The notes: generated by a model not told the origin, from the sequence alone. A stretch of 40,312 nucleotides of DNA from a virus (IMGVR_UViG_3300010362_000049:1-40312); one strand, 5' to 3'. Shown: positions 1,108 to 37,095, numbered from the stretch's first letter. Numbers and translations are program-made.

Positions 1108-1355
1108 TACTTGTTCGGTGCGTCCTGCGCCAGCGGAATCAGGAACGAGCGCCCGTCGACGCCGACAGGCCGATAAACCAGACCGGCGCTGGTCTTACAG
1201 CAGCGCTCGAAATTCCCGGCCGTCCCTTCGCCTCGCGTTTGCAGCGTGCCGTCGGTCTGCACACTCAGCACATCGCCCGGTTGACTCGGCGAGCCGTCAT
1301 CGCGGTGGAGATCCGGCCGCGCGTTGACGGTGAGCGTGTATTCTTCGCCGTCCAT
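1107..1355 (-). CDS. Hypothetical protein, 5'-shortened paralog of 7026..7391
   Basis: Shares PSQxGDVLSVQxDG...ERCxKT...VYRP...PLAxDAPNK; similarity continues upstream of the ATG (ATADQLNAM vs LASDQLIDV). Confidence 0.7.
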   Translation of the reverse strand: MDGEEYTLTVNARPDLHRDDGSPSQPGDVLSVQTDGTLQTRGEGTAGNFERCCKTSAGLVYRPVGVDGRSFLIPLAQDAPNK

Positions 1356-2758: not shown

Positions 2759-3751
2759 TCACAAACGAACGATGTCGAGCGTAAAGCGACCTTTCGGATC
2801 GGTTGTCGTGTATTGCTTTTTCAAGTCGGCGGGTAACTCGATGTGCGACTGCGCACCCCACTTACCCCGAATGTGGAAATGGCCGACGATGCCGCGAAGC
2901 ACGCCGCGCAACCGCTGCTTGACCTCTTTGTCGAGCGAGTCGAAATCATGACCGGCGCCCTTCAAGCTCTCGCGCCGCTCTAACAGCGATTCCAATTCAG
3001 GATCGGTGAGCACGTCGATCGGACCCGCACTCAGTGGCGGGTTACAGGTGTGACCGTAGAACGGGCATCGCTGGCATTCGACGGGATCATCGAGAAAGTC
3101 TGGTAGAGTGCCGGCCTGGTGATGGTCTAACACACGCTCGGCGCGCGTGAGAAAATCTTCCATCGCATCTAAGTGCCGGTCGAGTTCGACCGGCAGCAAC
3201 CGCGGCAACCCGGAGCGGTCAAGCAACAGATACCCGCACGGCTCGCCGGCGCCGTACAGATACGCGAGCAACTGATACGCACCGCTGCGCGTCCACGGTG
3301 AGTTGAAGAGATCGTCGAACGTGTCGATCCGGTCGACTAAGAACGGCGCCCAGGCCTTCACCTCGAGCGGCGCATTCTGACCGTTCGTGCGAATGCGCGC
3401 GTCGACTTTGCCCGTGATCGCCACGCGGCCTTTGCGGTCACGTAACTGGAACCGCTCTTGATGACTGACTACCTCGAACTCGGGCTGCGCGAAGCGGCCG
3501 ACGCGCGTCAGATCGATCAGCAAGTCACGTTCGCGGTCGGCGCCGCGGCGGAACTTGGCGAGGACTTCAGCGGGCCACGGCGGTTGACTGGCGGGTGCGA
3601 CTAATTCGAGCGCCATGCGGCGCTCGCACGTGCGATAGGCTGAGGCGTAGACGTGATCGTGCGGCGCCGGCCGCGCGGATCGATCGCTGATCAGATACGC
3701 GGCCCACGCCTGACTAACATTCGTCGCGATGTCTGCCGCCGCGATCGCCAC
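2759..3751 (-). CDS. Cas4-like PD-(D/E)xK exonuclease
   Basis: ITGKVDA...LEVK and QLLAYL motifs; N-terminal Cys (TCERR) plus C-terminal CxxCxxxxxxC cluster ligands. Confidence 0.85.
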   Translation of the reverse strand: MAIAAADIATNVSQAWAAYLISDRSARPAPHDHVYASAYRTCERRMALELVAPASQPPWPAEVLAKFRRGADRERDLLIDLTRVGRFAQPEFEVVSHQERFQLRDRKGRVAITGKVDARIRTNGQNAPLEVKAWAPFLVDRIDTFDDLFNSPWTRSGAYQLLAYLYGAGEPCGYLLLDRSGLPRLLPVELDRHLDAMEDFLTRAERVLDHHQAGTLPDFLDDPVECQRCPFYGHTCNPPLSAGPIDVLTDPELESLLERRESLKGAGHDFDSLDKEVKQRLRGVLRGIVGHFHIRGKWGAQSHIELPADLKKQYTTTDPKGRFTLDIVRL

Positions 3752-3754
3752 TGG

Positions 3755-4732
3755 TCAACCCTCTTGACCGGGCTCGCGGTGAAACGGAATCTCGGCTGCG
3801 GTGAGCGGCGCCGATGTCGGACTAACAGTGGGCGCCGGACCTGTCGTCGGACTCACGGGCGGGCTCGCCGCGGCCGAAGATGCGGGCGCCGCGGCCTTCT
3901 GTTTCTGCACCCAGTCGGCGGCATCGACAAAGAACCGCTTGTCTTTGTGCGATTCCCATTTCGGGCACCCGTAGAACGGCTTGCGGTCACCTTTGGCCGG
4001 CCGAAACACCGCGGCGGTACCGCAGTGCGGGCACATCGGTGGATCGACGTCGGGTGCTTTCTCGCTGCGAGCACCGACGGCGCGCTCACTACGTGAGCCG
4101 AAGCCGCGGCCGAGGCGACATTGTTCGACTTGTTTCGTGGTCCCGATCCACGCTGCGCGCAGGTCTTCGATCGGCACCGACTTCATGCCGGCGAGTTCGC
4201 GCGTGATGCCGCCGTCGAGATTCGCGCGTGCCGCTTTGCGGACTAACAATTCGCGCTCGACGCCGAACTTGTCTTTGCAGAACTCGTCGGTCGACGAGCG
4301 CCCGCCTTCCATCTGTTCGATCGTCTGTCGCGTCAACTTGCAGCGACCGGACCCGCGGACTAAGTAGTGATACTCGTCGGGATTCGTGCCGGCAATTTTT
4401 TCTGGCGGCGAGATGTCGAAGATTTCGATACCCCACAAGTCACGCACGCGATCGGCGCCGGCATCCTGGAGGTACGCGACCACCTGCCCGCCGTGTTCGT
4501 CAGGCGCTTTGTGCAGCACCCAGTCGGGCGGTGACGTCGCCCGAATCGAGGCGGTGCGTAACGTCGCGATGACTTGCACGCGCGCTTCGATGACCGCCGT
4601 GGCTTCACCTTTCAGCGCGGCGAGCTCGGACAAGGTGACGGGAATCTGCGGCGAGCGCAGCGCGAGCTGCCGCGGCGGAGTCACCTCACCTGTCTCGGTG
4701 TCGATGTCGATCGGTTCAGTGTCGGTCGGCAT
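3755..4732 (-). CDS. Putative recombination / single-strand annealing protein with C-terminal zinc ribbon
   Basis: Adjacent to the exonuclease; CPHCG...FYGCPKW zinc ribbon; disordered tail ending EIPF; GGAG before ATG 4732. Confidence 0.65.
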   Translation of the reverse strand: MPTDTEPIDIDTETGEVTPPRQLALRSPQIPVTLSELAALKGEATAVIEARVQVIATLRTASIRATSPPDWVLHKAPDEHGGQVVAYLQDAGADRVRDLWGIEIFDISPPEKIAGTNPDEYHYLVRGSGRCKLTRQTIEQMEGGRSSTDEFCKDKFGVERELLVRKAARANLDGGITRELAGMKSVPIEDLRAAWIGTTKQVEQCRLGRGFGSRSERAVGARSEKAPDVDPPMCPHCGTAAVFRPAKGDRKPFYGCPKWESHKDKRFFVDAADWVQKQKAAAPASSAAASPPVSPTTGPAPTVSPTSAPLTAAEIPFHREPGQEG

Positions 4733-7400: not shown

Positions 7401-8576
7401 ATGGCAACTCTCACGCCGACTGAGACTTACATCGCACTGGTGCAAGGCGCGAGCGGCGCGGCGCCGGCACCGCGACCGCTCGATCGCCGCACATTGCACG
7501 CCTCGTACTGCTCGCATCGCGACAGCACCGGTGAAGTCGTCTTCGATCCGATCTACTTCGGTGTGCTGTGGGCTGACGGCAATCGAGCCCGCATCGATGA
7601 CTGCCTGGCGACCAAGCGCGGCCTCGGCGTCGACGCGATTCAACTGTGCGTCCAAGGCGGGTACGGAAGTTACTTCGGCGGGCGCACGTTTGATTTTCGG
7701 AGTCACCCGAGTCAGTACGGCGACCTCTGCACCTACATGCGCGATGCCGGCTTTGTCCCGATCATTCTCGTCGCGACGGCCGACGGCGGCACCCACAAAG
7801 AGATTTACGACGGGACCATGCAACGCGTCCTCGAGGCCACCGCACATCTCGCGAAGGATGCCTGGTATTGCGCGGGCTACGAACAAAACCTGGATCGCGG
7901 CGGTGCGTATTCAGCGCGACAGCAACACGACGCCGCGCTGCTGATGCGGCAGGTCTGCGGACCTGAGGCGTACTTGATGCTCTGGTTACAGCCGATGCGC
8001 TGCACAATGGCGGCCTACTGGGGCAGTAACAAGGATCACAAACCGACGGCGCCCGACTGGAATCCGATCGACTTTCGATGGGTCACGAGCGCCAGCAATC
8101 CGGCCGAAGGCGCCTGGATTGAAGCCGACGATCCGGCCGGCGGAGGCGAGCAGGAAGCGTGGTACATCGAAGGTGGACTAGAGCTTGACGGGCTCTGGTA
8201 TCAAACGGATCACGGCTCGAATGGACCGAGTTACGCGGCGCCAGGCGGGACACCGGGGCTTGACTCGTTCGGGCAGCCACGTTACTTCGATCGATTGATT
8301 GAAATTTGCGATCGCTTTCTGGCACCGGGCACACCGATGCCGGGTGCAGACGGCTTCATCGACAGCAGCGGGTACCGACATACGGGCGTCTGCCCGTCAC
8401 ATTCGGCGCCCGACTGGTTCCATCAGTCACGTACGCGCGGGCGCCCGACGTTGATCGTCGGTGAGACGGTGCCGTACGAATACACGCGCGACCAGTGCTG
8501 CGATGAAGCGGTCAGCGAGTGCACGCGCGCGCTCGACTCACTGGGCATCACGTCACACGGATGTTGGCGCGCGTAG
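7401..8576 (+). CDS. Putative glycoside-hydrolase-like (TIM barrel) protein, possible lysin
   Basis: Alternating beta/alpha pattern GVDAIQL, GFVPIILV, YCAGYE, LIVGE; the Glu positions resemble clan GH-A (inference). Confidence 0.5.
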   Translation: MATLTPTETYIALVQGASGAAPAPRPLDRRTLHASYCSHRDSTGEVVFDPIYFGVLWADGNRARIDDCLATKRGLGVDAIQLCVQGGYGSYFGGRTFDFRSHPSQYGDLCTYMRDAGFVPIILVATADGGTHKEIYDGTMQRVLEATAHLAKDAWYCAGYEQNLDRGGAYSARQQHDAALLMRQVCGPEAYLMLWLQPMRCTMAAYWGSNKDHKPTAPDWNPIDFRWVTSASNPAEGAWIEADDPAGGGEQEAWYIEGGLELDGLWYQTDHGSNGPSYAAPGGTPGLDSFGQPRYFDRLIEICDRFLAPGTPMPGADGFIDSSGYRHTGVCPSHSAPDWFHQSRTRGRPTLIVGETVPYEYTRDQCCDEAVSECTRALDSLGITSHGCWRA

Positions 8577-8601: not shown

Positions 8602-8787
8602 ATGAGTCGACCCGGCCGGCCTCGTGTCGATCCGCGCGACCAATCGGTCACGCTCTGTCTCACGTTGCCTGCCCGCCAGTATGACCGTGCCTGTCACGAT
8701 GCCCGCCGCGCCGATGTCTCAGTCGCGGAAGTGATTCGCCGGCAGCTCGCCGCCGCGAAGTCACAAGCGACTGAGGAAGACGAATAA
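8602..8787 (+). CDS. Ribbon-helix-helix protein upstream of the head operon
   Basis: GRPR motif, beta strand VTLCLTLP, helices YDRACHDARR / VSVAEVIRR. Confidence 0.7.
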   Translation: MSRPGRPRVDPRDQSVTLCLTLPARQYDRACHDARRADVSVAEVIRRQLAAAKSQATEEDE

Positions 8788-9098: not shown

Positions 9099-10586
9099 GT
9101 GGCGATCGTCCGATCCTTCGGCGTCTTCCAAAGCACCGAGCGCCGCGCTGCGTTAGTCCCGACCGTGAGTGCGGCGCCGGCCTTCGGCATGACCTACGGC
9201 CTCGGCCAGCAATACGCGCTGATCTATGCGTCACAGCCGAACGTGCGGACCTGCGTCGACTTTCTCGCGCGCAACATCGCACAAGTCGGGTATCACGTGT
9301 TTCGGCGGGTGTCGGATACCGATCGGGTGCGCTTGGCCGATCACCAACTCAGCGACTGGCTGGAGCACCCGAACCCGTACACCTCGAGGTACCGCCTGTT
9401 CGAGAGTTACGTGGCGGATCTCGCGCTCTATTTCAATGCGTACTGGCTGAAGGTGCGCGAGCCCGATCGCATCGGCCTGGTGCGCGTCCCACCGCCGTCG
9501 ATGACGGTCGAAGGCGGATTACTGCCGGAAACGTTCATCTATCACGGCAATACGCAGACGCCCTTTGCGCCGTCGGAAGTCGTCTATGCGAACGGGTACA
9601 ACCCACTAAATCCCATCTTCGGCCTCTCACCGATCGAAACGTTGCGGCGGGTACTGGCTGAGGAAGCGGCCGCCGGCGAGCACCGCGAACGGTACTGGCG
9701 CAATGCCTCTCGCATGGAAGGCATCATCGAGCGGCCGAAGGACGCACCGAGGTGGACGCCCGAACAGAAACAAAAATGGCGTGAGCAGTGGCAGCAGCGG
9801 TACACCGGTCCCGCGAGTGTCGGCGCCGTCCCGGTCTTAGAAGACGGCATGACCTTCAAAGAGATTTCCTACTCGATGAAGGATTCCGACTATCTCAACG
9901 CGCGCAAACTCACGCGCGAAGAGTGCGCCGCGGCCTGGCACATTCCGCTCCCGATGGTCGGCATTCTCGATCACGCCACCTTCAGCAACATCAAAGAGCA
10001 GCACAAACAGCTGTACCAAGACTGCCTCGGGCCCTGGCTGGAAATGCTGGCGCAAGCGATCGAATTACAACTGCTGCCGGACTGTCAGGATACCGCCGGC
10101 ATTTACACCGAATTCAACATTGCCGACAAGATGAAGGGTTCGTTTGAAGAGCAGGCGGACTCACTGCGGCAAGCGGTCGACGGGCCGATCATGACGGCGA
10201 ATGAAGCGCGCTCTCGCTTGAACTTACCGCGCCTCGATGATCCGCGCGCTGATCGCTTGAACGAACCACGCGGCGGGCCATCGGTCGAAGTGCGGCCTGG
10301 TGCGGCCGGCGCCGCGGTGCCGTCGATCGTGCGCGCGCACTGGGCCCGACAACGTTCGCGACTGGAGCGGCTACCAGTCGACGAGCGCGCCGAAGCCCTG
10401 AATCACCAGCGGTGCACCAGCGAGCTCGCGGCGGACCTCTCGCGTCACCTCGGCCGCGGCGAGGCCTGGACGTATGCGGCGCGGGTCACTGACGAGACAT
10501 ACACGCTCTTACTCGAAGGGCGCCAGGCTTTCGGCGCCGATCGGGAACCGCGGCCAGTGGAGTACAGCTATGACCAAGCGGCGTGA
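9099..10586 (+). CDS. HK97-family portal protein
   Basis: GLSPIE, VLEDGMTF, TFSNIKEQ, IMTANEARSRLNLP motifs. Confidence 0.95.
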   Translation: MAIVRSFGVFQSTERRAALVPTVSAAPAFGMTYGLGQQYALIYASQPNVRTCVDFLARNIAQVGYHVFRRVSDTDRVRLADHQLSDWLEHPNPYTSRYRLFESYVADLALYFNAYWLKVREPDRIGLVRVPPPSMTVEGGLLPETFIYHGNTQTPFAPSEVVYANGYNPLNPIFGLSPIETLRRVLAEEAAAGEHRERYWRNASRMEGIIERPKDAPRWTPEQKQKWREQWQQRYTGPASVGAVPVLEDGMTFKEISYSMKDSDYLNARKLTREECAAAWHIPLPMVGILDHATFSNIKEQHKQLYQDCLGPWLEMLAQAIELQLLPDCQDTAGIYTEFNIADKMKGSFEEQADSLRQAVDGPIMTANEARSRLNLPRLDDPRADRLNEPRGGPSVEVRPGAAGAAVPSIVRAHWARQRSRLERLPVDERAEALNHQRCTSELAADLSRHLGRGEAWTYAARVTDETYTLLLEGRQAFGADREPRPVEYSYDQAA

Positions 10587-11592
10587 TAGCGCGCGATACG
10601 AGCACTTAGTCGCGTTCGCACTGGAGCACCCGTGGGCGATTACGCCCGCGATGCGCGCGATCGTCGCGGGGATTCTCGTGCGGCGCATCGTCGGCGAGGA
10701 CCCCGACGAGGACGCGATCGCCGCGGCGATTCAAGCGCGAGAGACGCGCGTGCATCCGGTCAATAGCGGCGGGCTCGTGGCGGTCATTCCGATCGCGGGT
10801 GTGCTCGCACCGCGCATGAATCTGTTTTCCGACATGAGCGGCGGCACGTCATTCGAGTTACTCAGCAAACAATTCAGAACCGCCGTCGATGATCCGAATG
10901 TGAAGACCGTCGTTTTCGACGTCGATAGTCCAGGCGGGAACGTCGCGGGTGCGACCGAGTTCGCGCGCGAGGTCCTGAAGGCGCGCACGCAGAAACGGAT
11001 CATCGCGCACGCACAGTACCTGATGGCCTCAGCGAGTTACTGGCCGATGGCGTGCGCGACTGAGATTGTCGCGTCACCCTCGGCAATGGTCGGATCGATC
11101 GGCGTCTATGCCTTGCACGATGACGTGAGCGAGATGCTCGCGAAGATGGGCATCAAGCGCGAAGTTTTCACCGCGGGCAAATACAAAGGCGAAGGCGCCG
11201 ACGGCGGGCCTCTGTCCGAGGATGCCCGCGCGCACGTCCAAACCTTGATCGATGGATCGTACGGGCGCTTTGTCGGCGACGTCGCGAAAGGCCGCGGTGT
11301 GTCACCAGCCGAGGTCCGCAAGGGTTTCGGCGAAGGCCGCGCGCTCGGTGCCGAGGCCGCTCTAAGTGCCGGCCTGATCGATCGGATCGATACGTTTGAA
11401 AACACACTCGCCCGCGCGAGTAAGCCGACCTCGAGCGGCGACGCGCGCGGCACGCTGGAGTCACCGCCCGTGGTCACGGACCAGGAGCCGGCACCGCCGG
11501 CCACGTCCCAGGAATCACGCGCGGCGATCGATGCGTCGTTTGTCGAGTACGAGCAGCGAGTGCTTGCACTCACGACAAAGAGGCTGCGATGA
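10570..11592 (+). CDS. S49-family prohead protease
   Basis: DVDSPGG, ASASYW, VGSIGV, AGKYK, GLIDRI motifs; start MTKRR at 10570. Confidence 0.92.
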   Translation: MTKRRDSARYEHLVAFALEHPWAITPAMRAIVAGILVRRIVGEDPDEDAIAAAIQARETRVHPVNSGGLVAVIPIAGVLAPRMNLFSDMSGGTSFELLSKQFRTAVDDPNVKTVVFDVDSPGGNVAGATEFAREVLKARTQKRIIAHAQYLMASASYWPMACATEIVASPSAMVGSIGVYALHDDVSEMLAKMGIKREVFTAGKYKGEGADGGPLSEDARAHVQTLIDGSYGRFVGDVAKGRGVSPAEVRKGFGEGRALGAEAALSAGLIDRIDTFENTLARASKPTSSGDARGTLESPPVVTDQEPAPPATSQESRAAIDASFVEYEQRVLALTTKRLR

Positions 11593-24699: not shown

Positions 24700-26382
24700 T
24701 CACGCCACGACTAAATCGGGATCGTCGGCGACGGGCGCCGCGGTGAGGCGTAACAGGATGTTCCAGGCGATCGCGAGCGCCACGATCGGATCGATGCGGC
24801 CGCGGCTGCGTTTCTTCGCCGGCAGGATATTGTCTTTGTCGTCACGTTTCACCACGATGTTACTCGCCGCCCACTCCATCACCGGGCAAGCGCCGGCATT
24901 GACCGCGCCGGCGAGCACTTCCGCTTCAAGCTCCTTACAGCCGCTCGACATACCCGCGTAGGTTTGCGACACCTCGAGGATCTGATCCTCACTGAATCCG
25001 TCTTCCTCTTGGAGTGCGACTTCTAACTGATCGGCATGCCAAGGATCGAAGCCGACCGCTTGAATCACCGCGAGCGCGGCGAGCTGCGCGAGCGCATCGC
25101 GAATCACCTGATGATTCACCTTGGTCCCAGGCACCGCGATCAGATGTCCCGCTTCGACCCATTGCGGATACGGCGCCCGATCACGATGCGCGCGATCCTC
25201 TAACGTGTCGGCCGGCGTCCAAATCCATCGGAGCACGCGCCACTGACTCACGTTCGGTGTCGGTGGAAACAACGCCGTCATCGCGCACAAGTCGAGTTTC
25301 GAGGCGAGGTCGATGCCGACGGCGCACGGCTGACCGCGCAGGTCCTCGCGCGCCCACGTGCGCGATTGACCTTTGCGCCAGCCATCGAGCGATAGCCACG
25401 GCTGACTCGTGTGCACCCAGATGTTCAACCGTTTCTGTTTGTAGGCCGCGGCCGCGGCGGGAATGCCTTGTGCCTTGCGCACTAACGCCGCGAGATCATC
25501 GGGCTTCACTGAGACGCCGTAGTTGGGATTCGCCTTGCGCGCGGTTTTCAGACTCGTCCAATCGTCTGACGGATCGGCGTGAGCGATGAACGCGAAGTAC
25601 GTATCATCGACTAACACGCGCTCAAGGATCTGACACGCATAGTGGTGCTCCTGCCCGCACGGTGAATTCGGATCGTCACCCGCCGTCGTGATCTTGAAGA
25701 CGATCGGTTGACGGCGCGCACCCGTCGACGTTTCGAGCACGTCGATCATGCCGCGCGTTTTGTACTTGTGAATTTCATCCAGACTGAGAAAGTGAATGTT
25801 GAGGCCGTCGAGTGAATCTTCGTCGGCGCCAAGTGGTTCGAGCTTCGACGCACTCACGTCGCGATAGAGGTTCGACATCAGCACCGCGATGCGGGTGCGC
25901 AACCCGCTCGTGAGCACTAACCGCTTCGCATCGTTGAAAACGATCCGCGCCTGGTCTTTCTTCGTCGCCGCGCAGTACCCTTCGGCACCGGGCTCGCCGT
26001 CGAAGAATGTGGCGTAGACGGCGACCACCGCATCCTCAAGCGACTTCCCTTGTTTGCGCGGTAGCTCGTTGTACGAATGCCGGAACCGTCGCAACCCGCT
26101 ATCACGATGCACCCATCCGAAGAGTGAGCCGAGGCGGTACTGTTGATGCGGCTGCCAGCGAATGAACTGACCGGCCCACTCACCTTTGTAGTGCTTCAAC
26201 TGCTCGCCGAAACGCAGGAAGCGATCGGCGCGATCGAGGTCTAGCAGATACGAAAACCGGCGGGTGCCTTCACGCCGGCGATCGTACTCGTGCCGCTCGC
26301 ACGCGAGGCGATGATACTTACCGGCCGGCACTTTGCCACTGACGACGCTGCGGACATAGGCGTCGATCGGGTGCCGCGCCAT
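24700..26382 (-). CDS. terL: Terminase large subunit
   Basis: Walker A PRKQGKS, Walker B LSLDEIH, ITTAG, GIDLASKLDL, RIDPIVA. Confidence 0.96.
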   Translation of the reverse strand: MARHPIDAYVRSVVSGKVPAGKYHRLACERHEYDRRREGTRRFSYLLDLDRADRFLRFGEQLKHYKGEWAGQFIRWQPHQQYRLGSLFGWVHRDSGLRRFRHSYNELPRKQGKSLEDAVVAVYATFFDGEPGAEGYCAATKKDQARIVFNDAKRLVLTSGLRTRIAVLMSNLYRDVSASKLEPLGADEDSLDGLNIHFLSLDEIHKYKTRGMIDVLETSTGARRQPIVFKITTAGDDPNSPCGQEHHYACQILERVLVDDTYFAFIAHADPSDDWTSLKTARKANPNYGVSVKPDDLAALVRKAQGIPAAAAAYKQKRLNIWVHTSQPWLSLDGWRKGQSRTWAREDLRGQPCAVGIDLASKLDLCAMTALFPPTPNVSQWRVLRWIWTPADTLEDRAHRDRAPYPQWVEAGHLIAVPGTKVNHQVIRDALAQLAALAVIQAVGFDPWHADQLEVALQEEDGFSEDQILEVSQTYAGMSSGCKELEAEVLAGAVNAGACPVMEWAASNIVVKRDDKDNILPAKKRSRGRIDPIVALAIAWNILLRLTAAPVADDPDLVVA

Positions 26383-26396
26383 GATCGCGGCCTCAA

Positions 26397-26903
26397 CTAA
26401 TTCGAGCGCCGCGGGCCTGGCGGTGCCGGCGGCATCGGCTGATCGAATTCACTAAATGGATCGTCGGCGGGCGGGCGAGTCACAGTCACGCGCGATCGAC
26501 TCGACGGCGTGAGCCCAAGTTCCGGCCAGAGCCGCGCACACCCGGCGAGCGCCTTTGTCGCGATCGACAGATACGGATTCGGAATCGGGTACCCGTTCGG
26601 CGTACTGACGACTAAGCCGGCGGTGCGGACCTTCGCCGTCGCATCGAGGTACCGCGCCCATTCGAGACAGAGCGCGAGCAGCGCGGCACGATCGGCATTC
26701 GTGATCTGGCGGGCCTGGACTAACAGCGGCGCCAACCGCTGCCATTCGGCGAGCGCCAGCGGCGCATCGACTAACTCCGCCGGCGGTGTCAGAAAGGCGT
26801 CGTCACTCACGGCCGGCTTGGGCTCGTCTGGATTGGTGCCGCGTTTACCGGGATAGCCCGCGAGTTCTTTGCGCCAGGACGGCAGCGGTTTACGACCGCG
26901 CAT
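26397..26903 (-). CDS. terS: Terminase small subunit (P27 family)
   Basis: MRGRKP, W..LAP.L, NPYL, ELGLTPSSRSR. Confidence 0.92.
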   Translation of the reverse strand: MRGRKPLPSWRKELAGYPGKRGTNPDEPKPAVSDDAFLTPPAELVDAPLALAEWQRLAPLLVQARQITNADRAALLALCLEWARYLDATAKVRTAGLVVSTPNGYPIPNPYLSIATKALAGCARLWPELGLTPSSRSRVTVTRPPADDPFSEFDQPMPPAPPGPRRSN

Positions 26904-27908: not shown

Positions 27909-28204
27909 CGACGTTTGCCTTTCTTCGACGGCGAGGCCTGCGCGAGCGCGTGTACCTCGGCGCGGGTTTGCCAGCGCCAGGCGTGTGCACCGCACGTCGT
28001 GTCGAGCGCGCGATCGACGTGCCCGCCGTAGACGCGCTCACCGCAGTGCACGCAGACGCGGCGCGGCCGGCCGGCACGTTGCGCATTCATCTTACGCGCG
28101 CGTACTTGCTTCGGGGTATTCCGACTGCCACCCATGCGCCCGATCTCTGACGCGGTGAGCGGGGTTCCTGGAACGGACTGAGTGACGTTAGTTTTCTTTG
28201 ACAT
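27905..28204 (-). CDS. Small basic protein with KGG-like motif and Cys cluster
   Basis: ASEIGRMGG...CVHCG. Confidence 0.6.
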   Translation of the reverse strand: MSKKTNVTQSVPGTPLTASEIGRMGGSRNTPKQVRARKMNAQRAGRPRRVCVHCGERVYGGHVDRALDTTCGAHAWRWQTRAEVHALAQASPSKKGKRR

Positions 28205-28299
28205 AGTGAGCGGTGAGATTATACATGCAATCTAACAAGCGACTAACAGGACCTCGAGCAAGGCCGCCCGGCCTGGTGTGACCTGTCCTGTCACTCGAC

Positions 28300-28830
28300 G
28301 GCGCTGCGGTGCGGTGAGCGGTGCGATCGGCGGGTGCCGCGGGTGCGGTGCGAGCGGTGCGATCGGGTGCGGCGCCGCGGTGCGGCGGGCTTCGCCAGAG
28401 GCCCGCGGCGGGCGCCAGAGGCCCGCGGGTGCGGCGGGCCCGCCTGAGGCCCGCCAGAGCCCGCCGCTCGTGCAGGCCGGCCACGTCGACACCGATCGAG
28501 AGCCCGCGGCGGGCGCCAGAGGCCCGCGGGTGCGGCGGGCCCGCCTGAGGCCCGCCAGAGCCCGCCAGAGCCCGCGGCGGGCGCCAAAGGCCCGCGGGTG
28601 CGGCGGGCCCGCCTGAGGCCCGCCCAGAGCCCGCCAGAGGCCCGCGGCGGGCGCCAGAGGCCCGCGGGTGCGGCGGGCCCGCCTGAGGCCCGCCAGAGCC
28701 CGCCAGAGCCCGCCAGAGGCCCGCGGCGGGCGCCAGAGGCCGCGGGTGCGGCGGGCCCGCCTGAGGCCCGCCCAGAGCCCGCCCAGAGCCCGCGGCGGGT
28801 GCGGGCGATCGGGTGTCGGGTGCGGGTGCA
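28300..28830. repeat. Very GC-rich tandem repeat region, five ~60-80 bp copies
   Basis: Core gcccgcggcgggcgccagaggcccgcgggtgcggcgggcccgcctgaggcccgccagag starts near 28401, 28502, 28570, 28640, 28719. Confidence 0.9.
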
Positions 28831-28863
28831 AAAAAAAAGGCGCCCGCGGGTGCGGGCGCCTTT
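28830..28863 (-). terminator. Rho-independent terminator
   Basis: aaaggcgcccgc-gggt-gcgggcgccttt stem-loop with a 9-nt U run on the - strand, just after 28884..29324. Confidence 0.85.
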
Positions 28864-28883
28864 GAGCGATCGGCGGGTGCGGG

Positions 28884-29324
28884 TTAGCGGCGGGCTTTCT
28901 TCGCGGGCGCCGCGGCGGGTGCGGGTGCGGGTGCGGGCGCCGCGGCGGGCTTGCGGCCTCGCTTCGCAAGCTGATCGTTTTCCGCTTTCAGCGCAGCGAT
29001 TTGCGCTTGCAGATCAGCCGACGAAACGGCGGGCGCCGCGGCGGGCTTGCGGCCTCGCTTCGCGGGTGCGGGTGCGGGCGCCGCGATCGCGATCGCGTTG
29101 CGCGGAAACCCGACCGCGGCGCCGCTATGCGCTGCTGTCGGTGTGACCGAACGGCGCCGCGGTGCGGGTGCGGGCGCCGCGGCCGCGGCCGCGGTGCGAG
29201 CGGCGATCGCCGCATCGCAGAGCGTATCAACGAAACCCCGTGCGGTTTTCCGATCGCCGATCGCGATCGCTTGCCTGAGTAAACCCCACGTCGGATCGGC
29301 GGGTGCCTTCGGTGTGCCTGGCAT
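28884..29324 (-). CDS. Ala/Pro/Lys-rich basic protein (histone-like)
   Basis: AKRGRKPAAAP twice, short coiled coil, has its own terminator. Confidence 0.6.
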   Translation of the reverse strand: MPGTPKAPADPTWGLLRQAIAIGDRKTARGFVDTLCDAAIAARTAAAAAAPAPAPRRRSVTPTAAHSGAAVGFPRNAIAIAAPAPAPAKRGRKPAAAPAVSSADLQAQIAALKAENDQLAKRGRKPAAAPAPAPAPAAAPAKKARR

Positions 29325-29397
29325 CGGAAACTTTTCCGGGTTTAAGCGGCGCTCGCGCGCTCGCCGCTCGATTCAAACTGACTGAAGCGACCATCGT

Positions 29398-29643
29398 TCA
29401 TTGGCTGATCCTTTCCATCGGGATTTCGATCGCGAACTCACACGCCATGCAGAACGCGACCGTGCAAGTCACGTCGTCCGCGCGGCGCGCGTTGGTGTCG
29501 AGTAACACGAGCCCGCCGCACCAAGGACAGGCCGCGCGCTGATGCGGCGCGCAGGCCTGGCATGGGACGCGCGAGGCGAGACGAATCGCCGCGGTCGCAC
29601 CCGGGCACCAACCGCAGCGTATGAGGCGATTACCTTGCGTCAC
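29398..29643 (-). CDS. Small multi-CxxC protein
   Basis: CGWC, CQAC, CPWC, CMAC; GTG start inferred. Confidence 0.55.
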   Translation of the reverse strand: MTQGNRLIRCGWCPGATAAIRLASRVPCQACAPHQRAACPWCGGLVLLDTNARRADDVTCTVAFCMACEFAIEIPMERISQ

Positions 29644-29995
29644 TGGCGTTGCGCTCCATCCGTTCGAGGCACGTCGAGCACGAGCAGTGCGGATCGTCGG
29701 CCGCGTGCCACTCGGCCCACGCCGCGATGATGAAGTCACGAATGCGATCGGTTGCTGCGGTGTCACTAAGTGGCCGGAGCAGCGCGAAGGATCGGCGCTC
29801 GCCGTTTACTTGATACTGCCGCGCGGGAAACGTCACGTTGAGCCCGCCACCGGTGCGCCGCTCCCAGAGCCCGAAGCCGATTAGCTTGAGCCCGTCGAGC
29901 AGCTCACCGTCACCACTGAAATGCAATTCCGCGTCAGCCACCTTACCCGCCGGCGAACCTTTCTCGTTTGTCACGAACTTCACTGAGATACGCAT
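29630..29995 (-). CDS. SpoVG-like nucleic-acid-binding protein
   Basis: ADAELHF...GLKLIGF.LW.....LNVTFPAR; AGGAG RBS. Confidence 0.65.
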   Translation of the reverse strand: MRISVKFVTNEKGSPAGKVADAELHFSGDGELLDGLKLIGFGLWERRTGGGLNVTFPARQYQVNGERRSFALLRPLSDTAATDRIRDFIIAAWAEWHAADDPHCSCSTCLERMERNASDAR

Positions 29996-30112
29996 CGATC
30001 GCTCCTAAGCAAAATCGCCGCGGCAGAATGCGCGCGGCGAGCATTAAGTATAGCCTAGCGAGCGGTGCGATAAAAGCGAAGAATTAGAGCGGTAAGAATT
30101 GGCTGGAATGAA

Positions 30113-30748
30113 TCAGAGCGGTAAGGCATGCGAGCGCGCGATGTCGGCCGGCGGGTGTGCGGCGGGCGCCGCGGGTGCGAGCGGTGCGAGCCCTAAGGCG
30201 TAGTAGGAGACGTCCTCTAAGTCGAGCACGCTCGCGTGCCGGATGTCGGCATAGTGCCACGTGTCACGCAGCACTAAGTCATCGACATAGGCGGCGAGGC
30301 GCTGCGACTGCGCGATCGGCCAGTGCCGCGGGACGCCGAAGTGCGCGAGCACCGCATCGGTGAGCACGCCCCAGCTCACCGTGCCGCGAGTCACGAAGAC
30401 CGCGGTCGGCTGCCGCAGGCGAGCCAGGACCTCGAGGTACGCTTCCCACGGCTCACCATAGGGATCGATGTCGATCACATTGAACTCATCGAGCGGCATC
30501 GCGCGGATCATGTCGACGGCACTCAGTTTCAGCGTGCCCACTCGCCGCGGCTTGATGTCGGATCGGATGCAGCGACTAATTGAAACGTGCGCCCGCATCG
30601 CGTCCCAAATCACGCCGGCGCCCGCACACGTGTCGAGCACGCGCACGTCGGTGATGTGCATCGCGTCGAGTAACCAGCAACGGAGCTCGACCTTGTGACG
30701 GAGCGATCGGTTATCGGTCTTCCGCTTGACGGGCTCGCGCCGACTCAT
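30113..30748 (-). CDS. SAM-dependent methyltransferase-like protein
   Basis: VLDTCAGAG (motif I) and VIDIDPYG (motif IV-like). Confidence 0.7.
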   Translation of the reverse strand: MSRREPVKRKTDNRSLRHKVELRCWLLDAMHITDVRVLDTCAGAGVIWDAMRAHVSISRCIRSDIKPRRVGTLKLSAVDMIRAMPLDEFNVIDIDPYGEPWEAYLEVLARLRQPTAVFVTRGTVSWGVLTDAVLAHFGVPRHWPIAQSQRLAAYVDDLVLRDTWHYADIRHASVLDLEDVSYYALGLAPLAPAAPAAHPPADIARSHALPL

Positions 30749-32543: not shown

Positions 32544-32836
32544 GATTTGTGATCAATTTGTGATCGATTTGCTGAAAAGCGCGCGTCAGCACTAACACAC
32601 GATGAAAAGGAAATTGAAGAATTGCTAAGGAATTAGAAGCGCGCGTAAGCCTACGTAAGCACCAGCCTTCTAAAGTCAGGCTTAGAAGGCCGGTGCTCTA
32701 TCCAACTGAGCTACGGGCGCATATGTGGGCTAAGTGCGTGCTATGCCAAGCGTTTAGCGCCTTTGATCAATCGCGGCATTCGACTAAGTGCTAACGCCGT
32801 TTGGTGATTTGTGATCGATTTGTGATCGATTTGCTG
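32544..32836. other. attP: tRNA-derived core flanked by integrase arm-type repeats
   Basis: (g/a)atttgtgatc x2 plus gatttgctg at both 32544-32574 and 32806-32836; 16-bp inverted arms at 32658-32673 / 32682-32697. Confidence 0.85.
32679..32720 (-). tRNA. 5' half of tRNA-Arg(TCT) (attP identity segment, not a full tRNA)
   Basis: GCGCCCGTAGCTCAGTTGGATAGAGCACCGGCCTTCTAAGCC; acceptor 5' strand, D-arm and anticodon loop present, no T-arm. Confidence 0.88.
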
Positions 32837-34156
32837 CGTTTCGGCGCCCGCCGCGGGTGCATCGGGTGTCGGTTCGGGCGCCGCGGGTGCCTTGCGCCAC
32901 GCATCATACGCCTGTCGCGAGCGGCGAATGTTCGCGGCCTTCGCGTGCAAGTAGGTCGCCGTTTGCGCGATCGAAGAATGGCCGAGCAGATGACTAATCT
33001 CACCAAGATCGATCTGTCCGCTTTCCAGCCACCGGCACGCGGCCTCGTGCCTGATGTCGTGAATGTTCAAGTCGATGTCGGCGAGCGCCGCGCGCGAGCG
33101 CGCATCGAAGTCACCAGTCTCGGTCCAGGCCGGCTCGATGTTATTCGAGCGCAGCACCGCCGTCAGGAAGCTCTTATCGATCGATTTGATTTGATCGCCG
33201 TAGGGATCACCGAAGACGAAGGCCCGCCGCGGCAGTGGCTTGCCCGCGGGATCGGTGCGCCGCAATCCGACTAACAGGTCGTACATCGGTTCGAACATTT
33301 CGATCATGCGCCCGCCCGTCGTGTCCGCGGTTTTGCCCGCGCCAACTTCCTCGCCGCGCACGTAGATTTGCCGCTGCACTAAGTGGACGTCAGGCCAGCG
33401 CAGCGCCAGCAGCTCACCGATACGCATGGCGGTTTCCATCAGTCCGATCAGCACGAGCGGCAGCAATCGCTCGCGTGATTCCGTCGCGGCCTCAAGTAGA
33501 TTCGACCATTCGCGCTCGTCGATGCGGCGCCGGCGCTGCGCAAACTTTTTGCGGCCTAATCGTTTCACCAAGTCAGGCGGTGCGGTCGCAATCGGATCGG
33601 CCGGAATGTGACCGCTCCATTTCGCCCATCGACTGAATTGCCCGATCAGCGTCCGGTACTTGCCCCAGGTCGAATGCGCCAAGTCACCGAGCGCCGCGCG
33701 CACCGCGATCCAATCATCGATCGTCACCTTTGCCATGATGCGATCGCCGAAGCGGTGTTTCCCGATCGTCACGTTACGGAGCGTACCGAGCTTGTAGCGA
33801 TCCTCGGCTTTGCTGCGATCGGTTTTATCGGGTGTGACGGTCAGACTGAGTTCATCGTAGAGCGTCACTAACAGGTCGACGGTGAGCCCTTGCGGTTTGT
33901 CGGGTTCCGCGGGTGCCGGCGGTGCGTACCCTTTGGCCTTCTGATAGGTTTTGTTGCGGATGGCCTGACGGATTTTTTCCGCGACGTCTTCCGCTTCGGT
34001 TTTCGTGTTATGCCACGGATCGATCGCAAGCACGTCGATCGCGTACCGAGTCACGTTCGGGGCTTCGCCGCGGAAGTGCTTCATGTACCAGGCATGGTCG
34101 AAGCACTTCGGCCACCTGGCTTCGTCGCACCCGCAGCGTTTCGTCACAATGCTCAT
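32741..34156 (-). CDS. int: Tyrosine integrase
   Basis: TAMRIGELLALRW, K, HDIRH, LLGHS, Y catalytic residues. Confidence 0.95.
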   Translation of the reverse strand: MSIVTKRCGCDEARWPKCFDHAWYMKHFRGEAPNVTRYAIDVLAIDPWHNTKTEAEDVAEKIRQAIRNKTYQKAKGYAPPAPAEPDKPQGLTVDLLVTLYDELSLTVTPDKTDRSKAEDRYKLGTLRNVTIGKHRFGDRIMAKVTIDDWIAVRAALGDLAHSTWGKYRTLIGQFSRWAKWSGHIPADPIATAPPDLVKRLGRKKFAQRRRRIDEREWSNLLEAATESRERLLPLVLIGLMETAMRIGELLALRWPDVHLVQRQIYVRGEEVGAGKTADTTGGRMIEMFEPMYDLLVGLRRTDPAGKPLPRRAFVFGDPYGDQIKSIDKSFLTAVLRSNNIEPAWTETGDFDARSRAALADIDLNIHDIRHEAACRWLESGQIDLGEISHLLGHSSIAQTATYLHAKAANIRRSRQAYDAWRKAPAAPEPTPDAPAAGAETQQIDHKSITNHQTALALSRMPRLIKGAKRLA

Positions 34157-34882: not shown

Positions 34883-35181
34883 GATCGTTCGGCCTCGATG
34901 CGCGCGACCCAGGCCGCGATGTCGATCACCGTCACAAAGTCACCCTGCGGCAACCACGTCAGCCAGTCGGCTTTGAATCGCTGATGCAGTACGCGCGCCT
35001 TGTGCGGCGTCACGCCGGCCTCTAACAGCAGCGCGAGCGCCAACTGCGCAGGACCGCTGCCAGCATAGCCCCAGTTGAAACCGGTGGGACTATGGTTCCA
35101 GACCTCGAGAGAGCGATCGGGCAGCAGCTCGCGCCCGTCGACTAACACGCGCCTGGTGCGCCAGTCACCTTGAATCGTCAT
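34879..35181 (-). CDS. DUF6166-like protein
   Basis: NHSPTGFNWGYAGSGPAQLALALL; ATG at 35181 preceded by AGGA from the last array junction. Confidence 0.75.
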   Translation of the reverse strand: MTIQGDWRTRRVLVDGRELLPDRSLEVWNHSPTGFNWGYAGSGPAQLALALLLEAGVTPHKARVLHQRFKADWLTWLPQGDFVTVIDIAAWVARIEAERS

Positions 35182-35187
35182 GTATTT

Positions 35188-35768
35188 CCTGCCTTCCGCA
35201 CCGTGCCTTGTCGCCCGAGACTGGCCCAAAGCGGGGTGGCCCAGTCTTACCGCGACTCACGAGAACGGCCATGCCGCACGCCGTCATGCCTCAACATTCC
35301 ATTCATGTCACGTCAATCGCTACCGCATCGCGACGTGGCGGCCTTGTCTAACACGCCTTGCCCGAACGCGCCTGGATAGACGTGCCGTTACCCGCCGCAT
35401 CTTTGTCGGCCGTAACAAACCCGACCCCGCCCCGCCGGGTACGATCCCGCGCGACCGTGCCGAGCCGAATCGGCCGCGTCAGATCGCGCGCCTTGTCGCG
35501 TCGAACCGAGCCTGAGCGAGTCACGCCGGATCTCGCGAAGCCTCCGATGTCACGTCGGCCGCGTCGGAACTGAGTGAGGCTGATCCAATCTCGTCCCGTC
35601 ACACCTAGCCGGCCATACCCAATCTAACCGCGCCGCGCCCTTCGCATGCAGCCAGGCGCCGAGCTTCCGCGCCACTCGCGTCACCCATAACGGGCCTTGC
35701 CCGACCTGCCAAACCGGAACTGACCATATCCTGAGAAGCGTTCCGCCCGTCGCAACGCCCATGCCGAA
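35188..35768 (-). ncRNA. Periodic (GGY/GAY/GTY-NN)n guide-like array, about 8-9 segments (VIPR-like)
   Basis: Visible 5-nt period, e.g. GGC TA GGT GT GAC GG GAC GA GAT TG GAT CA; junctions GGC-C-G / GGC-A-G ending at + positions 35193, 35270, 35343, 35411, 35475, 35560, 35614, (35653), 35710; no credible ORF. Confidence 0.85.
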
Positions 35769-36230
35769 TCAGGCAACCTGTTTCACCACTAACTGCACAC
35801 CGACGATTTCATCGAGTAGCGCGTGGATTTCATTCTGTAACCCGAGCGGCGCCGACAAGTCGAGCGCGCGTCGGACATGACCCGCGGCCGTTTCCAATGT
35901 GTAGATCAAACTTTCGCGCGCGTGATCGGGATTCTGCCGCAGTGTCGCGACCGATTGATACCCTTGGCCTTTCGTGTTCGGCAGGTGCACATACATCGGC
36001 GCCTTGATCGTGGTCGTTTCGTTGGTGACGACCACAGTCACGGCACCGATGATTTCACGGGCCCGCCACAGCCAGTGTTTTTCGGCGGCACGCTGTTGGT
36101 TCCAATCGAACAAGCCGTGAAGCGGACTACGTTTGTTTTTGGCATCCCGCACCACCTGCGCCGGCGTGAGTTGACCGTCGGCATTCTCCAGCGAGCGCAG
36201 GCGACGCAGTTGCGTCTTCGTCAGTGTCAT
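35769..36230 (-). CDS. Accessory protein of the RAMP/array locus (153 aa)
   Basis: GQLTPAQVV.DA....SPLHGLFDW....AA...W...AR.II; starts 4 bp after the RAMP gene and its stop abuts the array. Confidence 0.8.
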   Translation of the reverse strand: MTLTKTQLRRLRSLENADGQLTPAQVVRDAKNKRSPLHGLFDWNQQRAAEKHWLWRAREIIGAVTVVVTNETTTIKAPMYVHLPNTKGQGYQSVATLRQNPDHARESLIYTLETAAGHVRRALDLSAPLGLQNEIHALLDEIVGVQLVVKQVA

Positions 36231-36234
36231 CGAC

Positions 36235-37095
36235 TTACACCGCCATCTCGGCATCATCATCCGTGTCGTCGGGCTCACGGCCGTTACCGTGGGCGGGCGC
36301 ATCGGTGAGCCCTTGCAAGGTGCGCGCGGCAAGCTCGTCACTGAACCACGTCAACAATTCGGCCGTTTCATCGTCATAAGGCACCGGATGGGCGAGCGCA
36401 TCGACTTGCGCTGCGCGACCACCGGTTTTCACGATCCGTTTGAAATCGGGATCGTTTTGGTCACAGACGCGAAAGGCACCATAGTTCAGCGCACCTTTTT
36501 CGGCTCGGCCGTCACCCACGCCAGCGATGATGCCGCCGGCCGCGAGTAGATTTGCGACCGCCTGCGCTCGAATCAGCGGCTTCACAAACGTGATGGTCAG
36601 GCGACAAGCCCACTCACGCATCGCAGCGCGCGTACGAATATCGGGTGTGCGATTCATGTCGGCCGATCGGACCACATCCATCTTCAGCAACGGGATCCCG
36701 AAGACTTCAACCAAGTCACCGTGATCGCCGTCCACTCGGACTAAGCGGCCGACTTGAGCTTTCTTTGCACCTGGGATGTCGAGCGCGGCCGCGCGCATCG
36801 CACCTTTGAAGGCAGCGGCGCGAATGGCGAATAACGTCGCTGCGGTGGGATCCTTCAGCACGTACGGTGACGCTCTGAATTCATCGAGAGGCACATGCTT
36901 CAGAGTCGTCGCACGTTCGATCGCCGTCTTACGACCCCGAGGCAGTAACAATTCGTGCTGCGCCTTTTCGCTGGGCCGATTGTGCACGAGCGTGGTCATG
37001 CCGAGAATGCACGAGTGGAACGTGCCCGTCGAGACTTTCAGGATCTCGGTGATTTCCTCAGTCGCCTTCGGTTTGGTATCCTTCGACTTAGCCAT
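36235..37095 (-). CDS. Stand-alone Cas7/RAMP-like RNA-binding protein (286 aa)
   Basis: LG.TTLVHN, AAAFKGAMRAAA helix, RTRA...W..RL.I.F, glycine-rich loop GG..AGVGDGR.EKG...YG.F.V; AGGAGG RBS. Confidence 0.82.
   Translation of the reverse strand: MAKSKDTKPKATEEITEILKVSTGTFHSCILGMTTLVHNRPSEKAQHELLLPRGRKTAIERATTLKHVPLDEFRASPYVLKDPTAATLFAIRAAAFKGAMRAAALDIPGAKKAQVGRLVRVDGDHGDLVEVFGIPLLKMDVVRSADMNRTPDIRTRAAMREWACRLTITFVKPLIRAQAVANLLAAGGIIAGVGDGRAEKGALNYGAFRVCDQNDPDFKRIVKTGGRAAQVDALAHPVPYDDETAELLTWFSDELAARTLQGLTDAPAHGNGREPDDTDDDAEMAV

Follow-up and report, generated by a model that had tools for sequence, protein, structure and literature searches.

We describe a putative RNA guide, and the locus that carries it, in a whole IMG/VR virus (record IMGVR_UViG_3300010362_000049:1-40312; 40,312 nt, estimated to be ~97% complete, 62% G+C), which is an uncultured temperate siphophage from soil; this entire stretch is referred to below as the window. 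The long leftward early operon of the phage contains a 586-nt gap (35183-35768), bounded on one side by the stop codon of a gene that we term gpB (36230-35769) and on the other by the start of a DUF6166 gene (35182), with a second gene of interest, gpA, upstream of gpB (Table 1). An array of five-nucleotide units fills the gap, each unit combining a three-base scaffold with two variable bases (NN), and a segment of this array on the minus strand, at 35615-35706, is the candidate guide: its successive NN spell the active-site region of an S49-type prohead protease.

This architecture recalls VIPR, a kind of system described in three 2026 preprints (10.64898/2026.04.26.720920, 10.64898/2026.04.26.720927 and 10.64898/2026.10.15.759431). 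VIPR combines a phage-borne RAMP protein (Vipr) and an accessory gene (vap) with vrRNAs of 9-16 YNNGG repeats (Y, pyrimidine; N, any base), whose NN are read against double-stranded DNA, one base being skipped after each pair, at the wobble position of the codon (10.64898/2026.04.26.720920). Vipr stands alone and has an RRM core, a G-loop and a thumb, and the tandem pentamers, four units or more, occupy the intergenic DNA next to vipr. The natural targets lie in competing phages and satellites, the action is transcriptional silencing, and seven types are distinguished; in one layout, the staggered array, each vrRNA shares 1 nt with its neighbour (10.64898/2026.04.26.720920). The same preprint describes frequent internal degeneracy of vrRNAs and, with a target-calling cut-off of at least 80% of NN, reports zero self-targets. 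In the SUSP1 structure one protomer is bound to each repeat, with GGY being held by the D177, W178 and R179 residues of a G-loop and the NN being presented (10.64898/2026.04.26.720927).

The proteins encoded upstream of the array

An AlphaFold2 (AF2) model of gpA, built from a 16-row alignment, has a pLDDT of 74.7 and a pTM of 0.71. Foldseek searches of the PDB with this model returned 31 matches with E<=0.001, the rows listed being Cas7-family chains throughout (Csm3, Cas7-11 and type VII Cas7), and the best match was to the type III-A Csm3 6xn3_F (E 4.7e-5; TM 0.39/0.51). From this model gpA is predicted to adopt a Cas7/Csm3-like fold. The family has a G-loop of the form G-x-G-D-[W/G]-R, in which D195 and R197 are invariant and position 196 is Trp in 9/16 sequences and Gly in the other 7, including that of the window (G-V-G-D-G-R); it is likened to the D177-W178-R179 of SUSP1 by motif resemblance only. 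The frequency of G at the second scaffold base of the accompanying arrays averages 0.76 in the nine loci with Trp and 0.64 in the seven with Gly (0.50 in the window and 0.44 in locus L024), a weak trend with overlapping ranges among loci that are mutually related. We tentatively suggest that a relaxed G-R-Y scaffold (R, purine) might be tolerated by proteins with Gly instead of Trp in the G-loop, in which case the scaffold-reading pocket would co-evolve with the array.

The AF2 model of gpB (pLDDT 80) has no convincing structural match. Its first 100 residues give winged-helix-like rows (Z 5-6.5, with Foldseek E>=0.14) and the remainder forms a helical hairpin, a DNA-binding fold being no more than possible. 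Neither gpA nor gpB was recognised by Pfam, NCBIfam or PADLOC, the one row returned (Chap-C) being below threshold, and tblastn of gpB against cultured phages gave one weak match only, in Cyanophage Cy-LDV1 (37% identity over 55% of the query). Likewise, gpB with an over-long GTG start, used as a pattern query against viral and genome contigs, found zero relatives.

A non-coding array with a period of five

The autocorrelation of the array at lag 5 is 0.37-0.40, against ~0.25 at other lags, and is the strongest such signal of the window, with a Fourier peak at 4.86-5.0. A five-state period-5 hidden Markov model (HMM), which permits slips in unit length, gains 87.9 nats over a model with no period, as against 1.8, 1.4, 6.2 and 29.4 nats for periods of 3, 4, 6 and 7, respectively. 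By all three measures the 2+3 structure of period five, which a preliminary description of the window had assumed, is real. The unit learned on the minus strand reads G (0.86), R (G 0.51, A 0.30), Y (C 0.59, T 0.33; 0.92 for Y as a whole), N, N, and the NN are GC-rich in composition. Some units are only 4 nt long, often GGCC or GGCA, and GGCC occurs six times in the window array, acting as punctuation. A background/array HMM places the bounds at 3498-4035 of contig L026, which correspond to 35733-35196 of the window.

The third-position G+C bias is absent from the 586-nt gap in all frames, and the gap is therefore non-coding. Rfam yielded no match to the array, either at the gathering cut-off or at E<=10, and predicted RNA folding of the two strands of the gap was no better than that of shuffled sequence (z +0.96 and +0.78). 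Blastn and megablast searches of cultured phages with the array region gave zero matches, no long direct repeats were found in 35100-35850, and none of the RNA sequencing runs searched is listed as containing the array stretch.

The candidate guide and its probable targets in foreign S49 genes

The Viterbi parse of the segment yields nineteen units with the NN series CG AA CC AT GT GC GT GC AG GG CT TG GC AG GC GC TA TG AT, which decodes as R K P I V A V A.. L C A S A A Y W I. The parse given in the preliminary description is identical except at units 9-10 (AA TC instead of AG GG), and the strict reading TG AG GC GC TA TG AT, with which it had begun, is present as reverse-complemented dinucleotides at plus-strand positions 35645, 35640 and so on down to 35615. 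The ungapped match of 9/19 that it noted to the own S49 stretch of the phage was reproduced, with both parses giving the same value (47%). Its central claim, that the segment spells the S49 active-site region of a related phage, is supported by two sets of foreign genes.

The first set comprises the S49 genes of eight related phages, L044-L051, which were picked by protein similarity and scored at the homologous in-frame site. The Viterbi guide matches these at 10, 10, 12, 11, 10, 10, 11 and 13 of 19 units; all eight score above the own copy, which is the comparison by which the preliminary description had asked to be judged. Across the same nine genes the best score in 3000 shuffles of dinucleotide order never exceeded 10, a value reached three times. 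With the parse of the preliminary description the S49 gene of L051 matches at 14/19 (peptide RKPVIAVANTLMASAAYWI).

The second set comes from a gapped-pattern scan of IMG/VR, a search of the kind that the preliminary description had proposed, in which the nine 3' units were represented as 18 fixed bases and an exact match was required. It returned 14 places, all 14 in frame on the LCASAAYWI stretch of S49 genes. These places represent eight distinct sequences that vary at third codon bases (CTC/CTA/CTT/CTG, AGC/AGT and TAC/TAT) and are identical at all 18 of the positions read. As controls, the nine dinucleotides in shuffled order matched one place in IMG/VR, and nine units of the neighbouring segment S2 (35605-35561) matched none. 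On the 14 genes found by pattern the whole guide scores 12-15/19. Every S49 match, in the eight relatives as in the 14/14 found by pattern, is in frame, with the NN on codon positions 1-2 and the skipped base on the wobble position, this being the one skip length that was scored. These results support the conclusion that the guide spells the catalytic-serine stretch of S49 and that foreign genes match it better than the own gene does.

The exact targets belong to a different S49 sub-lineage from that of the nearest relatives of the phage, distinguished by Cys, an AGY-encoded Ser and Ile; relative to the own gene, the differences fall at guide units 12 (Cys/Met), 14 (Ser AGY/TCN) and 19 (Ile/Pro). 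The catalytic Ser is AGC or AGT in 14/14 of the exact-match genes (L073-L086). Among the own gene and those of the eight nearest relatives, it is TCN in 9/9, and the other two positions hold Met and Pro in 8/9. In the own gene the codon is TCA, where the guide reads AG, and 3/9 of the 3' units are mismatched, the serine codon family included. Such switching between codon families (Ser AGY/TCN, among six-fold-degenerate codons) might, as a speculation, represent escape from a wobble-skipping VIPR code, or self-sparing by it. Were the split a product of VIPR pressure, metagenomes would carry a legible trace of RNA-guided warfare between phages, in the form of switches of Ser, Leu or Arg codon family at catalytic residues that do not vary.

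Related loci and the putative targets of their arrays

Homologues of gpB number 59 in metagenomes, and an alignment of 28 of them was used to collect 31 loci from viral and metagenome contigs: the window itself, six duplicate contigs, L043, which has a 23-residue partial gpB match and no array, and 23 others. Each of these 23 contains exactly one period-5 array, directly after gpB and on the same strand, with lengths of 156-778 nt (some clipped by contig ends), and each has a gpA homologue just upstream, with 52-64% identity. No other window gene is shared with them except for a replication-initiation-like match in L039. The arrays of different phages are unalignable, though their gpA genes are up to 80% identical in DNA. 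The DUF6166 neighbour was also tried as a route to the array and was dropped, with 0/11 of the loci that have DUF6166 alone containing one.

The relatives have a stricter unit than the window, mostly GGCNN, and their arrays are punctuated by a 4-nt GGCA followed by GRC, most spacings being of the form 5k+4 nt, from 44 to 74 nt. Exact matches start right after a 4-nt unit both in the window and in L014, which has the 11-unit match listed in Table 1. In L022 and L024, the two that were scanned, a single terminator-like hairpin with a T run lies right after the array.

Twenty arrays were scanned all-vs-all, in 16-unit windows, against 11 phage records and five further S49 genes. At least 10 matches were seen in 47 windows as against 16 in shuffled arrays, and at least 11 matches in 14 as against none. 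Runs of at least eight consecutive matches occurred in six real windows and in 0, 0, 0, 0 and 1 windows of five shuffles; runs of at least seven did not discriminate (13 real, 4-15 in shuffles). Each credible diagonal of the relatives keeps the reading frame and follows the sense strand, and several of the phages targeted by these guides carry VIPR loci themselves. Two further matches, of L015 to G008 (out of frame) and of L016 to G001 (in a junk frame), were judged to be due to chance.

Two other segments of the window array were also decoded. The series TC TC AC CG GG CG CC GG GG CG TT AC at 35411-35467 (minus strand) matches the antisense strand where a small open reading frame (ORF) begins (MSRPGRPRVD; window 8602-8787), the wobble position being the one skipped. 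Its run is of eight units in G009 (8297-8320) and of seven in the own genome (8610-8630), in a GC-rich stretch and with borderline statistics. The guide next to the one studied here, at 35561-35610 (minus strand), reads Y V G D/E W/C H/Q S H/Q P A, which we take to resemble the HSHP motif of JAMM/MPN metalloproteases.

Interpretation and alternatives

We consider it highly probable that 35615-35706 is a guide of a VIPR locus whose NN match the LCASAAYWI stretch of S49 genes in other phages, genes that the RNA-protein filament is predicted to bind and would probably silence. The locus shows the sequence-level features of the VIPR family and is filed as a VIPR system with a putatively staggered array layout. 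The competitor-directed framework of the preliminary description, with NN set against codon positions 1-2, is that of published VIPR; the silencing itself we infer. By the mechanism given in the preprints, one Vipr protomer would bind each repeat, sequester the three scaffold bases and present the NN; the NN would then pair with double-stranded DNA, skipping every third target base, and the binding would repress transcription of competing mobile elements. In the phage studied here, the array would be transcribed together with gpA and gpB from the early leftward operon, and would be of the staggered type, with its 4-nt units marking one-base overlaps between guides. A prophage or infecting phage might in this way block head maturation in rival phages of the other S49 sub-lineage.

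Several observations weigh against this interpretation. The best match of the whole guide, among the exact-pattern matches in IMG/VR and the eight homologues, is 15/19 (79%, in L077 and L079), just below the cut-off of at least 80% NN used in the preprint, and in the 14 exact 3'-half targets the ten 5' units match at 3-6/10 only. The scaffolds CAT and GA inside the guide are non-canonical, and its nineteen units exceed the 9-16 repeats of published vrRNAs. When the arrays of the relatives were scanned against the genome of this phage, the result was at chance, with 11 real and 12 shuffled windows at 10/19. The window array is the most degenerate among 16 loci (scaffold G2 0.50, C3 0.57) and contains 16 four-nt units for every 100 of five nt; the GGCAGRC punctuation of most relatives is missing, no terminator-like site was called at its end, and its gpA has Gly at the G-loop position where a Trp stacks on G2 in SUSP1.

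The most probable alternative is that the nineteen units are two adjacent guides, of about 10 and 9 units, which are processed apart. The preliminary description had left a choice between one guide and two split at 35650-35653; the split is not needed, the nineteen units lying on a single ungapped diagonal of the target gene. In favour of two guides are the unusual length, the restriction of exact natural matches to the 3' nine units, the poor agreement of units 9-10 (matched in at most 3/14 targets found by pattern and 0/9 found by homology), and a possible 4-nt reading GGCT at 35653-35650 that resembles the GGCT punctuation of L024. However, a boundary at GGCT would yield C S A A Y W I, dropping the Ala between Cys and Ser, whereas the automatic parse (GGCTG, CATGC, GAAG) yields L C A S A A Y W I, matched 9/9 in 14 natural genes. 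The agreement of the automatic register with natural genes favours a continuous footprint of 57 bp, and two guides appear rather doubtful to us; the identity of the segment would be the same either way.

A live but improbable rival, in our view, is that this is a VIPR locus with a decaying, non-working array or guide, the S49 match being the fossil of a former guide. The weak scaffold conservation and many 4-nt units, the missing punctuation and terminator-like site, and the Gly where SUSP1 and 9/16 relatives have Trp would all fit with decay, as would the mismatch of units 9-10 and several 5' units to the targets found. However, the reading frames of gpA and gpB are intact and conserved, the Gly variant occurs in 7/16 relatives, whose arrays are long and regular, and nine consecutive NN units exactly match eight distinct natural sequences, an agreement that would not have outlasted neutral decay. 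The VIPR preprint, too, describes vrRNAs as often degenerate internally (10.64898/2026.04.26.720920).

Far less probable is regulation of the own head operon, as opposed to that of rivals, by partial pairing of the guide with the own S49 gene. With the parse of the preliminary description the own site does score highest of all 80,512 places in the six frames of the genome, and is alone in doing so (9/19). However, such a score is not above chance: all of 100 nineteen-unit array windows find a best place of 7-9/19 in the six frames of the phage, 9/100 of them reaching 9, and 35/300 series of shuffled dinucleotide order likewise reach 9/19 somewhere in the own genome. Foreign S49 genes score higher (10-15/19), the own gene differs at 3/9 of the 3' units, and the zero self-targets at >=80% NN reported in the VIPR preprint (10.64898/2026.04.26.720920) also argue against self-regulation. 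Finally, the notion that the match is numerology, with the array being a periodic G-rich element of some other role, such as scaffolding a protein or forming an R-loop or G-quadruplex, and its NN uninformative, can draw on the chance-level match in the own genome, the non-discriminating runs of seven units and the GC-rich NN, but is strongly disfavoured and hardly credible in view of a score of 13/19 where none of 3000 shuffles went beyond 10, the concentration of 14/14 in-frame pattern matches in one motif of one gene family (controls 1 and 0), the 11-unit and 8-unit exact runs in other arrays, which are of a length seen once in five shuffles, the Cas7-like partner protein and the published biochemistry for the same architecture.

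Several earlier candidates were dropped after the gpA fold and the target matches had been obtained, namely TRAP-like or nucleocapsid-like wrapping, an R-loop, a G-quadruplex, an ops-like element, a decayed microsatellite, and a reading of the units as NNG codons, in which TA followed by G would be a stop.

If the preferred interpretation as a VIPR guide against foreign S49 genes holds, this is a cleanly decoded natural guide with eight distinct targets that vary at wobble positions, which shows why the code would skip the third base, and its target would be the motif around the catalytic serine of a head-maturation protease. It also belongs to a family of at least 23 further loci with gpA, gpB and an apparently staggered array, whose guides match protease-capsid, terminase and a P-loop gene and, less surely, an HNH gene of other phages.

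Other features of the window

Table 1. Coordinates of the locus, of other features of the window and of guides in related loci (numbered on their own contigs)
Feature	Position	Strand	Remarks
gpA, Vipr-like RAMP protein (predicted), 286 aa from MAKSKD	36235..37095	-	AF2 and Foldseek; conserved upstream of gpB
gpB, vap-like accessory protein, 153 aa, phrog_15946	35769..36230	-	59 homologues; between gpA and array
vrRNA-type array, ~115 G-R-Y-N-N units, non-coding	35196..35768	-	Period-5 HMM; starts directly after gpB stop codon
4-nt unit GGCA, directly 5' of guide	35707..35710	-	Read as frame-shifting punctuation of a staggered array
Candidate guide, 19 units (16 of 5 nt, 3 of 4 nt)	35615..35706	-	Viterbi parse; in-frame S49 matches
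4-nt unit GGCC, directly 3' of guide	35611..35614	-	
Inverted repeat at array 3' end	35218..35247	-	11-nt arms, 91% complementary, 8 nt between arms, no T run after
Own S49 prohead-protease active-site stretch (QKRIIAHAQYLMASASYWP)	10990..11046	+	Homologous to target; guide match 9/19
Portal, S49 head-maturation protease, major head, tail and tape-measure genes	10474-11592 (protease)	+	
Terminase genes	24700-26903	-	
Long leftward early operon	32741-34156 (integrase end)		Ends with excisionase-like gene and tyrosine integrase
L014 guide to P-loop gene (phrog_1366) of G009	3651-3710		11 consecutive units
L019 guide to fused protease-major-head gene of G004/G005	~3190-3260		
L031 guide to fused protease-major-head gene of G004/G005	~1134-1215		
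L032 guide to large terminase (TerL) of G006	~2960-3040		
L024 guide to HNH endonuclease of G003	~3814-3890		Weaker; stretch runs past gene stop codon

A scan of the window ORFs with Pfam and PHROGs matched none of Cas10, Cas5, Cas6 and Cas1-2, the sole other cas-like match being a weak Cas4-domain exonuclease at 2759-3751. Directly downstream of the integrase, at 32638-32720 (minus strand), there is an Rfam tRNA match barely over its threshold (30.9 bits; cut-off 29), where ARAGORN called no tRNA; an attachment site derived from a tRNA is one possibility. A region of ~1.1 kb (28230-29300), flanked by the terminase block and the ParB/HNH genes, is notable for having no coding frame bias and a G+C of up to 0.87. 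It consists of tandem GC-rich repeats, with GCCCGCCAGA-like decamers within units of ~60-80 nt, GGTGCG hexamers and a nine-A run, and the ORFs called there have no PHROG match. Around this GC-rich block a motif like GAGCGGTGCGAT / GAGCGGTAAG recurs, by eye, about seven times on the plus strand (28156-30125), and may represent operator or protein-binding sites.

Comparison with known systems

Full-text literature searches for a 5-nt periodicity and for Cas7-like proteins in superinfection returned nothing relevant, and the closest parallel is provided by VIPR of the staggered type. Like that system, the locus is phage-borne and pairs a lone RAMP/Cas7-like gene and one accessory gene with a downstream non-coding pentamer array, which has a conserved 3-nt scaffold and hypervariable NN. 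The NN match coding DNA with a 1-nt wobble skip, the apparent targets are genes of other phages, there is no good self-target, and adjacent guides appear to be staggered by one base, as suggested by the 4-nt units and the mostly 5k+4 spacing. In contrast to characterised Vipr proteins of ~20 kD, the gpA homologues have 260-286 aa; the scaffold of the window is a looser G-R-Y, in which 30% of second positions are A; and the guide has 19 units and a best natural match of 79%, as against 9-16 repeats and at least 80%.

The type II VIPR of Escherichia phage SUSP1 and a Pseudomonas fulva prophage shares the GGY/NN code, has a G-loop Asp and Arg flanking an aromatic position (D177-W178-R179, which D195-[W/G]196-R197 resembles here) and has an accessory gene predicted to bind DNA, as gpB may do. 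Unlike in type II, there is no conserved 3' tail or pseudoknot of ~40 nt for each guide; the guides are contiguous, with only 4-nt units between them, and a hairpin is seen only at the array end in L022 and L024. The locus is not filed as type II because it lacks such a tail or pseudoknot after each guide. The Trp is also replaced by Gly in the window, and the apparent targets are head-morphogenesis genes of phages, whereas those of type II are a satellite or lysis-lysogeny regulators.

Class 1 CRISPR-Cas systems, in which Csm3, Cmr4 or Cas7 assemble on a CRISPR RNA (crRNA), resemble the locus in the predicted fold of gpA and in the RNA-guided filament with periodically flipped bases that gpA would form. 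In contrast to these, the locus has no CRISPR repeats or spacers, its period is five with two pairing bases, as opposed to six with five, and its guide does not copy the target contiguously. In superinfection exclusion by mini-CRISPR arrays that viruses carry, ordinary CRISPR spacers are used together with host Cas proteins. Such arrays likewise equip a virus with guides against conserved genes of related viruses, whereas the phage described here brings its own protein and a non-contiguous code. The kind of system is already known as VIPR, and the locus makes a modest addition to it, in the form of a natural target set, a split in serine codon family between self and target, and 23 further loci.

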